A DNA stretch of 64,000 nt from Podarcis cretensis (Eukaryota): positions 43,400,001-43,464,000 of the forward strand of contig OX638150.1 in NCBI GenBank assembly GCA_951804945.1, written 5' to 3'. How positions within the stretch are numbered: the stretch's first letter is position 1; each line of letters begins with the position of its first letter. Shown piece by piece: positions 7,812 through 56,547 of this stretch. The notes below the pieces were generated by a model that was given only the letters and a program-made list of their open reading frames with translations, had not been told where the DNA came from and searched no databases. The translations under genes were made by a program, and so were the position numbers.

Positions 7812-10170
7812 ATTTCCCTCAGTACTTAGCAGATCAGTGCTGTACTCTGATGTTGAATTAATAACACACACACACTCCCCCTTGGTAATAAAGACTGTTT
7901 GGAATCTCAGTCTGTTTCACTGATAGCTCCCTGAAGAGAAATGACCCTGTGTGAAGGATGTACATTTTGTAGTTTTCCCCATTGGGCTTGTGCAGAAAGT
8001 AAGAATCATCACTGGGGAAGAAAATGTGTGCTTTGTACAAGACACTGGGTTTAGGGCTCAAAACCAACCTGCTGTAGCAGGTTGTGTGAGGGAGGAGCAG
8101 AATTCTAAACTTGAGTCTTGCGCAATTTGTAAGGTGTTAAATGTTACATTTCTTACTAGCAATCTTACCAATAAAACGTTAACTGTAGACTAAGCTTGCA
8201 TTTGAGATTGAAATTACATGTTACCTTTTAAAATAGCAATTCTGGTCTTATTTTTCCTTGCAGATCGTCCCTCTCTAAATGAATGTTTATTTCTGTAATA
8301 GGGATGTTGTTGCACTGAGTTTAATTACCTCCACCTTTGTTGTCTTCCAAGAGGGAACTTGTAGTTCCATGTGTATGATCACTGCTGCAGGAGAAACTTG
8401 TGCCGGGTCCTGTGACGGCTAACAGCTGCATTGCAACTCTGCGAGTGCTTACATGGGAGTAAAAAATAGACAAAACAAACTTCCCCATTAACGTAGCTTC
8501 TCTTTCCTTCACTATACCGGTAATTTCCCTTGTTTTGGAGTGCAGAGAGACTGCTTGAGGGGACAGTGGGATCTTGCCACATAGGGCTGGAACTAAGCCA
8601 CAGAATGATGGTCAAGCAGGTGTGATTAGTCATAAGACTGTTCTTGTTATCACAGGCCAATGCTGAAAACAAGATGTATTAACCATATTGAATTACAGGA
8701 AGGGCAGAGAGGTGTGCCCCTTAACCTCTTCTGATGGACTCAAAACAGCTACCCCTGTTTTTTGTTTTTACTGTGTTTTTTTTTTCACTGTTCTGTTTTT
8801 GTTTTTAGAAATCTTCTCCCAGCATGACTCAGCTAAAACTGGGAGGAGTCAGGTGGCTGTAGGGCTTATACATTTCAGGAAGTCTGCCCCTTCTCCGTTA
8901 TTCAAGCCCTGCCTGAACTGCCTTCAGACTCATTTTCCAGTAACTTCAAATGTACATTTGGATTGTTCAGGTATGCATTGCCAAAAGAGGAAATGTACTA
9001 CTGGAAACAGATGACACAGAACTGCATAAAATTTGCATACCGTATTTTATATGCATAGATGCAAACTTAGAAAATTGCTATAACCGAAACAGAAATGCAC
9101 GCACGGTAGTGGGGAGCTTGTGTTACCAAATGTGCCTGCGAGTCTTAGATCATGTCATATTTGAATGGGACAGCCCTCTAAGTAGACTCTGGACTTCTAT
9201 TGCCACCCCCAATAAAGTAGGACACATAGTCACCTCTCGTCCACTCCAGACGACATTTCTCTCCCCACCCCCTTTTAAGCCCACGAGTAGACACGATAAC
9301 CAGAACATCAGGATCTGCACCAAGACCCGGGCGACCCTCTCGTGGCCCGTGTATGGCAACAATACGAATTCTACAAGCACACCGCAGAAGTTGTGAAGTG
9401 TAATGGAGGTGGGAGTGGGGAGAAAGCGACGAGGCGAGAACAGGCAGCGCTTGCTGGGCAAGAAGAGCAGCCGCTTGAACGAGGGGACGGGCGGAGGGAG
9501 GGGCTTCTGAATGAAAGCCAGAGCGGCCTCTCTAATAATGGCAGCGTCCAAACGAGCCTTCTCCATGTCCTTCCTCCCGGCTGCAACAAACCCGGCGCTG
9601 TTCTGGCTTCTGGAAGCCAGGCGGGGCGGCGGAGGGGAGCTGGCCCTCCCACCCCCCCCGATCCCCCAACCCGGCCTTTGTTGCTAATCTTTTAATCTGC
9701 TCCGGAAAGGGGGAAACCTAGGGAGGGTTGGAAGCAGCAGCTGCCTCCTCCCCCCCCTCCCCTGGAGCTTGCGGCGGCGGCGGCTGCAGCGATGTCTCCG
9801 TCTCCTCCTCTCTCTCTCTCTCACACACACCCCAACTCAACCCCCCCAGCTCACGTGACCAGCAACCCGGCCAGTTGAGCACCGGGAGGGAGAGAGCCAG
9901 CGAGCCAGCGGAGCCGACGCTGCAACAACAATAAAGAGCGGCAAAAAAATAAAACAAAAAGGAGGCCGGCGCGCGGACAGAACGTTCGGCGGGCAAAAAA
10001 GTGGCGCGCGCGGCAGTATCGGCCGCTGCAAGGCTAGCTGCCTGCAGGAGAGAGGGGGAAAAGCCCTCAACTCCTCCTTCCTTTTCGTCCGCTCGTCTGT
10101 TCCTGGGCGGTTGGGCCGCCCCCTTTCGGGGCTCGACGGCTCCCTCCACTCACGCCCCACCAACCAGAGG

Positions 10171-10221
10171 ATGGCGGATCGACGACGGCTCTTGCTGCTT
10201 CTTCTGCTGCTGCTGTTGTAA
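10171..10221 (+). CDS. upstream ORF, 16 aa MADRRRLLLLLLLLLL*
   Basis: AGGATGG (A at -3, G at +4), TAA at 10219-10221, same frame as PKN1 ATG 10321. Translation unproven; requires a TSS upstream of 10171. Confidence 0.5.
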   Translation: MADRRRLLLLLLLLLL

Positions 10222-10320
10222 GGGCAGCCCTGGGGAGCAGCAGAGGCTGCCCCAGGAGCAGCAGCAGCAGCAGCAGCAGCGAGAAGGCGGGGAGGAAGCC
10301 AGCCGGGGCTTGGCGGGAAG

Positions 10321-10341
10321 ATGGCCAACGAGTCGCTTCAG
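10321..10341 (+). CDS. PKN1: PKN1 exon 1a coding part (MANESLQ)
   Basis: AAGATGG Kozak, 7 codons resembling mammalian PKN1 MASDAVQ, donor CAG|GTAAAA, phase 0 matching exon 2. Confidence 0.9.
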
Positions 10342-11329
10342 GTAAAAAGGGAAACAAACCCCCACCCGAGTCCTCGCTTTTCCTGCGCGGGGTGGCGCGC
10401 AGCCTGAGGAGGATTCGGTGGTTGGGATGCTGGGGGGAAAGAGAGAGAGAGAGAGAGCCGCCGGTCTCTGCGCGCCTCGGGAGTGCAGCTGAGGAGGGGC
10501 TGCGCGAGCTCCCCCCCCTCCTGCTCGCTTCTCTCTCCCCCCCCCCCGCGGTCCAGATGGTGGCGAGAGTCGCAGCTGCAGCCTTTGCTCCCGAGGCCGG
10601 ATCCCGGCGCTGGTTTGGCTAACCAAAGCGGGGCGGCGGAGTGGGGACAGATGAGCCATGCTTCCTAGATATGGGTCGGATGGGTTTGAACCTCGACAGA
10701 GCCGGTTTCTGATTCCTGGTTAGCCACCAGCTTGTAGGGTGGACTTGGGCAAGTCGCCGTATCTCTCTCATCTGTTTTTTTAAAAAAGAAAGTAATAACT
10801 TGGGATACTTCATGATCACGTGGTGTTGGCCACCGACAGCGAAGCTCTTGCGCATGAAGTACTACTAAACATTTAAATAATAATTCATCTTTTCATCTTT
10901 TCGGTGTGGGTGAGGAAACCAATCCAGGACTTTAATGTGCTCTTCTTCTGCATCCTGTCACTCATCAATTTAAGTCTCTCAAATGCCCGATGTGTAAACC
11001 ACTGGGTTAGATAGGCTTTATTTCTTGGGTGCAGTGGGTGTGTTTGTCTCTTTCCATTTATTTAACCTAGTCCCTCTTATGAGCCTGCCTTCAAAATTGG
11101 GAGCCATGGCCCCTTCTTGCTGGTGATCCCAATGTGGTGAAAGGGATTGCCTCCTAGTTGTGAACCTTCAAAAAGACCTTTCTTCCAGGTCATTCTAGAA
11201 ATCTTGGACCCTTCCAGGTCTTTCAGAAGTTGTTTAAACTTGGCAGTGAGGTGGCCAAGTTTGCTGGTGGTAGTAAATCATTCAGCGTTGTCATAACAAA
11301 AAGAGATTATGAAGAGCTCCAAAATGACC

Positions 11330-37409: not shown

Positions 37410-38158
37410 TTTTCTGCCATTGGTTACCGTTGTGTGGATGGTTGCATGGTGTTTACTAGCTTACAGTAGCATTCCTGATAGAAAGACTACCGCATTTCTT
37501 ATCACTTCTGCTTTCTGCCACACAGGGGACCTGTGTTTTCAAGTCTGTGTTGGACACAGATCCAAATTACTACTAAATTGCCAAAATAAGGAGAAATTGC
37601 CAGTTGTTGGTCAGTTGGCTGGTTGTCCTAATAAGCCTGTGGTGCATCCTTAAATTCTTTTGCACCCAGATGAGTCTAATAAAGTCTGCCCACCCCATTC
37701 TGCATTAAGGCTTACAAACTGTGAACTTTTGGGCTCCAAAACCATGCCTAGCTTTCTCTCCCTCCCTCCATCCCTCCTCTGCTCTGCATTTTGCTAGAAC
37801 ATCCAGCCAGAAGCAGAGTTCTGGACGACTTGAAAGCTTGCTTGCTGTTTCTTGGTATTTTACCTCATAAAAGTATCGCCCTACTGCAGTTCTGGGGATT
37901 TCCTGGCCCTCTAGAAAGTTCACTCAGAAGGGAAGGCAAGTGGCAAAGCAGCAGGGGAAGATGTAGGCCCCACCGTTGCTCCCTTCAGCCGTGGCCTGTG
38001 TTTCGGTATTGCCAGCGAATACAGGAACTCTGTTAGGAAGTGGTTTGTTTGCTCACAGGCTGGAAGAGCCGTTTGAATCAACAGGCAGGAAATGAGGGTG
38101 TAGCCAGCACACAGTTCGAAGCAGACGGGTGGCCTGGTGTGCCTCTCCTGGGGCCGGG

Positions 38159-38203
38159 ATGTCTCTTTCGGAGCCGGACACAAACTCTGAGCATGACCAA
38201 GAG
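38159..38203 (+). CDS. PKN1: probable alternative first coding exon 1b (MSLSEPDTNSEHDQE)
   Basis: GGGATG, 15 codons, donor GAG|GTACAG in phase 0, in-frame stop upstream at 38093, local CpG enrichment. Resembles the alternative human N-terminus MAEANNPSEQELE as I recall it. Confidence 0.65.
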
Positions 38204-42387: not shown

Positions 42388-42688
42388 AGTGATCCAGGCA
42401 ACTGGTCAGTGCTGGAGCAGCTGGGCCTGGACCAGAGCTCAGATTTCTCAGACACCAGTGTACAGCAGAAGTTGGATGAAGAAAAGGAGAAGATTAAGCG
42501 TGAGATTCGAAAAGAGCTGAAGATAAAGGAGGGAGCAGAAAACTTGCGCAAGGCAACCACAGACCGTAAGAACCTCTCCAATGTGGACAACTTGCTCAAG
42601 AGTTCCAACCGCAAGCTGGAGGCCCTGCACCACCAACTGCAGGATCTCAATGCACATATTGTCGTCAAAGACCCTGAAGAGCTGGGGG
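42388..42688 (+). CDS. PKN1: PKN1 exon 2 (HR1a)
   Basis: ttgcag|AGT...G|gtaagt; [14 protein letters not shown]...[16 protein letters not shown]...KDPEELG; 301 nt, phase 0/1. Confidence 0.95.
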
Positions 42689-56409: not shown

Positions 56410-56547
56410 CAGGCATAGGTAAACTCCGGCCCTCTAGATGTTTTGGAACTACAATTCCCATCATCCCTAGCTAACAGGACCAGCGGCCAGGGATGATGGG
56501 AATTGTAGTCACAAAACATCTGGAGGGCCGGAGTTTGCCTATTCCTG
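56410..56547. mobile_element. palindromic hAT-type MITE
   Basis: Fold-back AAACTCCGGCCCTC...GAGGGCCGGAGTTT; 8-bp TSD GGTCAAGG/GGTTAAGG. Confidence 0.82.

Follow-up and report, generated by a model that had tools for sequence, protein, structure and literature searches.

An upstream open reading frame and a predicted repeat-built hairpin in the PKN1 exon-1a leader of Podarcis cretensis, a likely throttle on kinase amount

Upstream of PKN1 in Podarcis cretensis, a short frame begins at a strong-context ATG, runs through a stretch of leucines, and is kept from continuity with the kinase by a single stop codon. A sequence-only reading of the 64,000-nucleotide stretch analysed here (contig OX638150.1, positions 43,400,001 to 43,464,000; hereafter the window, whose own coordinates are used below, plus strand throughout) raised the question of whether this frame represses PKN1 or can lend it a signal peptide. 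The description of the frame holds in every particular. The upstream ATG (uATG) at 10171 is flanked by A (-3) and G (+4), which gives this upstream open reading frame (uORF, 10171–10221) an optimal start context, and its 16 codons read M-A-D-R-R-R and then ten leucines before a TAA at 10219–10221, with G as the next base. The leucines had been attributed to a CTG repeat, and most of them are indeed coded by a CTG/CTT tract at 10193–10215. From the uATG to the exon-1a ATG at 10321 the distance is 150 nt, in frame, and the 33 codons after the TAA are open, again as proposed. The uATG is the sole ATG of the 480-nt exon-1a leader (9841–10320), the extent of which comes from contigs of related species and not from a mapped transcription start site (TSS), and the TAA is the sole stop in all frames across 10038–10341. 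The leader is a CpG island (GC 0.59–0.68, CpG observed/expected 0.5–1.2). Of seven near-cognate codons sought in frame 3' of the TAA, none is present. As a canonical non-overlapping uORF does, the frame has its AUG and its in-frame stop 5' of the main start, and it leaves a 99-nt spacer (10222–10320) as a putative reinitiation path. The frame at 10171 is thus a genuine uORF, followed by a predicted, unusually strong hairpin built from repeats.

That the ATG at 10321 is the start of PKN1, as had been suggested, is borne out by exon 2 and by its junction. Exon 2 (42388–42688), which encodes the HR1a domain and was placed by protein matches and contig junctions, is 91–99% identical to the tetrapod PKN1 matches P0014–P0036, the fish match P0033 excepted, and 93–99% identical to squamate PKN1; transcript contigs join 10341 to it. 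Exon 1a contributes seven codons (10321–10341), with a donor GT at 10342. An alternative first coding exon, 1b (38159–38203), is likewise followed by a GT donor, bypasses the exon-1a leader, and has a translation identical to the N-terminus of the lacertid PKN1 isoforms P0134, P0135, and P0138. More HR1 and kinase exons lie 3' of exon 2 within the window. A check for paralogs gave a single match, exon-2-like, on C6. The gibbon and siamang “PKN2-like” proteins (P0001–P0013) exceed squamate PKN1 in total bits at ~70% identity, and their scores suggest repeated HR1-like segments in amplified copies. Ten in-frame codons precede the exon-1b ATG (38129–38158), the first of them GTG; they resemble an ATG-started extension annotated in four gecko species (P0169, P0032, P0034/P0166, and P0178), share 8 of 10 residues with P0169, and are possibly a GUG-initiated or decayed N-terminal extension of PKN1b, with C at -3 making for a weak context. 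Farther downstream, near a PKN1 exon, a palindromic element (56426–56532) has the most stable fold of the window at -65.8 kcal/mol and is presumably a MITE-type squamate repeat.

Whether the uORF is part of the messenger was addressed with transcript data from 4 of 22 runs, one for each of four related species and none from P. cretensis itself; that these runs are RNA was judged by the exon 1–2 junction rather than by the record label. In all four relatives, the match of the contigs to the reference breaks off at 10341, and the opening 29–30 letters of exon 2 come next. Each relative provided one long contig; the 5' ends fall at 9841, 9879, 9904, and 10112, that is, 59–330 nt 5' of the uATG, and all four reach the donor at 10341. 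Because these contigs span 10171 to exon 2, spliced transcripts of the relatives contain the uATG, and in all four the uORF is within the mature mRNA. The contigs reveal neither the TSS nor the proportion of transcripts that start below 10171, and missing cover at 9700–9840 was not counted as evidence. Close to the 5' ends of the longest contigs is an E-box, CACGTG, at 9852 (9850–9858) in TCACGTGAC context, which we take to be a USF/TFE-type site.

Conservation in related lizards had been named as a way to judge the frame, and here the outcome is divided. The ATG and TAA show no listed change in any of the four relatives, and the spacing from uATG to main ATG (141, 144, 138, and 144 nt) stays in frame in each, with uORFs of 16, 16, 15, and 17 codons in the same order. 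However, retention of uATG and TAA in all four has a chance probability of 0.51 (six given sites, with 28 of 267 upstream leader sites varying), and the kept codons are weak evidence since divergence is so low. The kept frame is weak evidence as well, since triplet repeats slip in threes. Repeat length differs from that of this genome in every relative, the CAG tract being 6–9 nt shorter, where indels were located via depth bins, gap totals, and end distances and the losses of 6–9 nt were assumed to lie within that tract. The non-repeat 3' part of the leader varies at 1 of 66 sites against 28 of 267 upstream (Fisher p 0.015), a post hoc comparison in which the upstream region is uncovered in one relative. 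A 120-codon ATG-less open reading frame in the frame of the uORF (9859–10221) was considered and rejected, as a 1-nt deletion at 9995 shifts it in all three relatives that cover the site. Leaders of distant orthologues were sought with another leader frame as an indirect probe, and none of 82 candidates was one.

The folding model brings out a feature that the sequence-only reading had not reported: the leucine run (CTG) and an alanine run (CAG) in the PKN1 frame are the two arms of one predicted stem. The predicted RNA hairpin (10190–10284) has 38 bp and -71 kcal/mol, with a 5' arm at 10190–10232, an 8-nt loop at 10233–10240, and a 3' arm at 10241–10284. The CTG/CTT tract makes up the outer 5' arm and the CAG tract (10253–10280) the outer 3' arm, and between them lies a non-repeat inner stem (10222–10250) in which 10222–10232 pairs with 10241–10252. 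The UAA sits in a predicted internal loop (10218–10221), with A10221 opposite C10253 and A10220 opposite A10254. The hairpin has a z of -4.62, and none of 200 shuffles was equally stable. When the whole leader is folded as an ensemble, 36 of the 38 pairs reach a probability of 0.94 or more, and of 2556 windows in the 64 kb the two that hold the hairpin rank second and third. The base of the stem follows the A of the uAUG by 19 nt, and the 5' arm ends 11 nt beyond the stop.

Modelled hairpins of the four relatives retain 31–36 pairs and -55 to -63 kcal/mol, with the base 15–19 nt after the A. In the inner stem there is one listed variant among the relatives, at the bulged base 10244, and none is listed at a paired position; in the outer stem, 10196 T>A disrupts a pair in two of the four. 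No stem pair is changed on both sides in the four relatives. The layout (CTG)4-N30-55-(CAG)4 occurs at 12 loci in the 1.5-Gb genome, overlapping matches counted once; a control pattern gave 0 hits, a figure set aside because the control was unfair in composition. An origin from a dispersed repeat was rejected, as a genome search that skipped simple repeats recovered nothing but the locus itself, in direct and in inverted orientation. A GT at 10218 (10215–10223) overlaps the uORF stop; as a cryptic donor it was rejected, being in phase 2 and off-frame with the normal exon-2 acceptor, and the four contig sets contain no loose end at 10217. Joined to an AG two bases inside exon 2, the same GT would place the leucine run in frame with PKN1, a junction unused in the four contig sets.

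Taken together, we consider it somewhat likely (a probability of about 0.55) that the uORF and its predicted hairpin act as a throttle on the amount of kinase, with PKN1a produced mainly via reinitiation. Elongating ribosomes melt stems that block scanning, and the proposal builds on this difference. A scanning 43S complex would be unable to melt ~-71 kcal/mol and would stall with the uAUG in the P site, and leaky scanning would be low because the predicted stem holds the 43S there. The mammalian ribosome is described as covering 15–17 nt 3' of the P site (PMC13517186), and the predicted stem base, at 19 nt, is slightly past that cover. In plants and in human cells, use of a uAUG is promoted when a hairpin follows it (PMC10499604), and a cap-distal stem of -61 kcal/mol stalls the scanning complex (PMC5766168; 10.1101/2021.12.29.474417). 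An 80S ribosome translating the uORF would then strip the 5' arm in its entirety, as far as its end 11 nt beyond the UAA, approximately at the entry-channel edge of the terminating ribosome; the entry channel is described as holding the 11–12 nt 3' of the A site (PMC13517186). When ribosome-covered bases were removed stepwise, the remaining leader fold went from -82 to between -28 and -31 kcal/mol at the stop, and in this unwinding model the local hairpin remaining at termination has -11 to -14 kcal/mol. Some 40S subunits would rescan the 99 nt and start PKN1, and the remainder would recycle. The CUG arm would yield the leucine peptide as a by-product, and transcripts from exon 1b would escape control by the leader. 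Under the 50–55 nt rule, nonsense-mediated decay is an added possibility, since the uORF stop is 120 nt above the first junction and could expose the mRNA to it.

The repressive uORF of the earlier proposal, acting via leaky scanning or reinitiation, is therefore retained in part: the uORF is plausible given the spliced contigs in four of four relatives and the optimal context, and leaky scanning would be unlikely given the predicted hairpin. Mammalian uORFs that permit reinitiation usually have fewer than 30 codons, and structure inside a uORF slows elongation and reduces reinitiation (both PMC5972666); the latter counts against the reinitiation step, and on balance the uORF may act in either direction. 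Further points count against the throttle. Retention of ATG and TAA is near chance, no pair of the stem is changed on both sides in the relatives, and 10196 T>A disrupts one. Coding regions of uORFs are described as mostly neutral genome-wide, across eukaryotes (PMC7889888), and the geometry of uAUG and stem was spotted post hoc and is partly shared by control loci.

The best-surviving alternative, which we hold to be possible and clearly less probable than the throttle, is neutral: two microsatellites came to face each other by chance in a GC-rich leader that also holds a chance ATG, and PKN1 either tolerates whatever effect they have or escapes it through downstream starts and exon 1b. Much of the pattern first noted fits chance well. 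Of 5000 dinucleotide shuffles, 89% put at least one ATG in the leader and 83% leave the 33 codons open (p 0.83), and placement of the uATG in frame is a 1-in-3 event; the chance retention of ATG and TAA given above and the repeat length, unequal to the reference in all four relatives, fit equally. The 11 further loci with CTG/CAG hairpins, several of them rich in GC and CpG, carry chance ATGs and poly-Leu open reading frames, ATG-started at 4 of the 11 and in one case with a basic n-region. An ATG lies 12–26 nt before the stem in 8 of 22 strand views (6 of the 11 control loci), with G at +4 in none of the eight; this comparison is rough, the stem-base call having failed in two views and over-extended at the PKN1 locus, and the control loci are not known as leaders. 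Five other loci with facing CTG/CAG hairpins, L003, L015, L016, L018, and L019 (on C1, C9, C12, C13, and C14), have GC of 0.65–0.76 and CpG observed/expected of 0.67–0.95, and are perhaps leaders or first exons of further genes. The pattern of the sequence-only reading is thus mostly near chance, and the non-chance feature is the predicted hairpin. What weighs against neutrality is that the inner stem, which is not repeat, shows a listed change at none of its paired positions in the four relatives, and that a modelled stem of -55 to -71 kcal/mol behind an optimal uAUG could hardly go without effect in a leader that is expressed.

The uORF may be a way through the hairpin barrier rather than a plain repressor, if the folding model holds. 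In its fullest form, which we rate a little below neutrality and so as rather unlikely, the uORF is net permissive, a ramp translated in order to melt the stem, such that loss of the uATG would lower PKN1 and repeat length would tune the dose.

Improbable, and well behind either of these, is the reading in which the uATG persists because it belongs to a YY1/TISU-like promoter element and the uORF is incidental. The resemblance to a YY1 site that had been entered as a caveat is real, as the uATG context resembles the TISU/YY1 core and lies within a CpG island, and TISU is described as binding YY1, with an AUG that in some genes precedes a stop (PMC2518114). The same source describes TISU near the TSS, but the contigs reach 59–330 nt above the uATG. 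The AAGAUGG flank is matched better at the main ATG than at the uATG, and the hairpin would be left unexplained.

Marginally less probable still is that the hairpin serves mainly as a substrate for enzymes acting on double-stranded RNA (Microprocessor/Dicer, ADAR, or PKR) that set the level or fate of the mRNA, for which hairpins in the DGCR8 mRNA are a precedent. At 95 nt, with its 38-bp stem, it is similar in size to a pre-miRNA, and several miRNA models match weakly. However, all 15 Rfam matches fall far under the gathering score (best 34.7 against 110 bits), and none of the 15 reaches threshold. With a loop of 8 nt, the hairpin has arms of 43 nt, which exceed the optimum of roughly 35 bp, and contigs cross the hairpin unbroken in all four relatives.

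We regard as very unlikely that the UAA is bypassed, by readthrough, by an allele lacking the stop, or by double A-to-I editing to Trp, to give a signal-peptide extension of 50 residues by which PKN1 would reach the ER. The layout first noticed is present, RRR followed by ten leucines giving a basic n-region and a hydrophobic run (Kyte-Doolittle 3.8) like those of Sec signal peptides, and the frame between uORF and PKN1 is kept in all four relatives. However, continuity with PKN1 is broken by the TAA here and in all four relatives, and the h-region is not preserved: Leu9 is replaced by Gln in two of the four, where the longest leucine runs are 6 and 8. None of 32 squamate PKN1 proteins of the exon-1a type is extended. 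These 32, from 24 named species plus further assemblies, were recognised by pattern (27) or by eye (5) among 89 squamate PKN1 proteins, in which two clusters were represented by 15 of 29 and 15 of 43 members. An open exon-1a extension would tend to show in such a set, because these annotations do lengthen exon 1b in geckos and snakes at an open upstream ATG. The extended peptide had no match at E<=10 among 514 candidates from proteins of 101–2000 aa, a weak test with a low-complexity query, and none at E<=0.001 among 1.84 billion representatives, also a weak test as clustering hides extended forms. A cleaved N-terminal signal takes a kinase into the ER lumen rather than anchoring it on the cytosolic face. 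Most likely, the frame resembles a signal peptide as a side effect of its repeat.

Each way past the stop meets its own obstacle. That UAA is among the least leaky of stops had been conceded at the outset and is upheld, as programmed readthrough uses a leaky UGA or UAG, and UAA followed by G is a weak readthrough signal (PMC13517186); together with the 32 unextended proteins, this speaks against readthrough to an extended PKN1. Structures that stimulate readthrough lie 8 or more nt past a stop. Folds 3' of the stop here amount to -19 kcal/mol from 7 nt, -14 from 9–10 nt, and -11.5 from 12 nt, so that an alternative hairpin of -19 kcal/mol could form 7 nt past the stop and favour readthrough, but it would sit largely within the entry channel. 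The allele lacking TAA was not seen in the contigs of any of the four relatives. As to editing, ADAR prefers A-C mismatches, and the stop is within duplex RNA as recoding sites are, in a predicted internal loop with A10221 opposite C. Both adenosines must be edited to yield Trp, a single edit giving another stop, and conversion of UAA to sense by editing is described as poor (PMC13027266). No A>G at 10220 or 10221 appears in the contig sets of the four relatives, which drop rare variants. An ADAR-gated switch that would fuse the repeat-built signal peptide to PKN1, and so divert a Rho-effector kinase into the ER, is as improbable as bypass in general. The least credible proposal is that the 16-residue peptide acts in trans as the PKC-eta uORF peptide uPEP2 does, a precedent in a kinase family to which PKN1 is related (PMC11900008), since no pseudosubstrate-like motif is seen by eye and the peptide varies among close relatives (Leu9 to Gln, 15–17 codons).

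If the throttle is real, the PKN1 leader would be a natural case of two facing microsatellites that form a scanning-proof stem and are opened by a uORF of matching length. Close relatives differ in repeat length, which would then tune how much of a Rho-effector kinase is made, and from one first exon only. The leader also lends itself to testing cleanly whether a uORF can aid rather than hinder downstream translation. Listings of openly accessible papers gave none on a PKN1 uORF; PMC1431701 mentions both terms once. Judged by its sequence, the uORF belongs to an ordinary class of element.

Among known systems, the amber/W site of hepatitis delta virus is a stop recoded by editing at an A-C mismatch of a long, imperfect duplex. 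The PKN1 stop likewise lies in an imperfect predicted duplex with an A-C mismatch; in contrast, it is a UAA, for which two edits are needed, it precedes the main open reading frame, and no edit appears in four contig sets. At the level of the gene, mouse PKN1a and PKN1b also arise from first exons 1a and 1b that splice to exon 2, as in the lizard, and the relevant passages of that description mention neither a uORF nor a leader hairpin (PMC7691520). Like uORF1 of ATF4 and of GCN4 as described in PMC5972666, the PKN1 uORF is short (16 codons) and non-overlapping, with a spacer of 99 nt. It differs from these in being a single uORF translated through a strong predicted stem, which according to the same source should lower reinitiation. 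In the cat-1 leader, translation of a uORF is proposed to refold the leader and allow the downstream start, as we propose for PKN1, although cat-1 forms an IRES and the PKN1 proposal is one of simple reinitiation (PMC11900008). Closest are the uAUG-ds elements described by Xiang et al. 2023 (PMC10499604) in BRCA1 and in an engineered ATF4, where, as predicted for the PKN1 leader, a uAUG lies closely 5' of a stable stem expected to help select it. Typical elements have 12–20 bp and -19.9 to -34.1 kcal/mol (PMC10499604), and the predicted PKN1 stem of 38 bp and -71 kcal/mol is beyond that range; facing CUG and CAG repeats build it, and the uORF stop falls inside it. By this analogy, and on the folding model, the PKN1 uORF and its predicted hairpin would work like a uAUG-ds element above the typical size.
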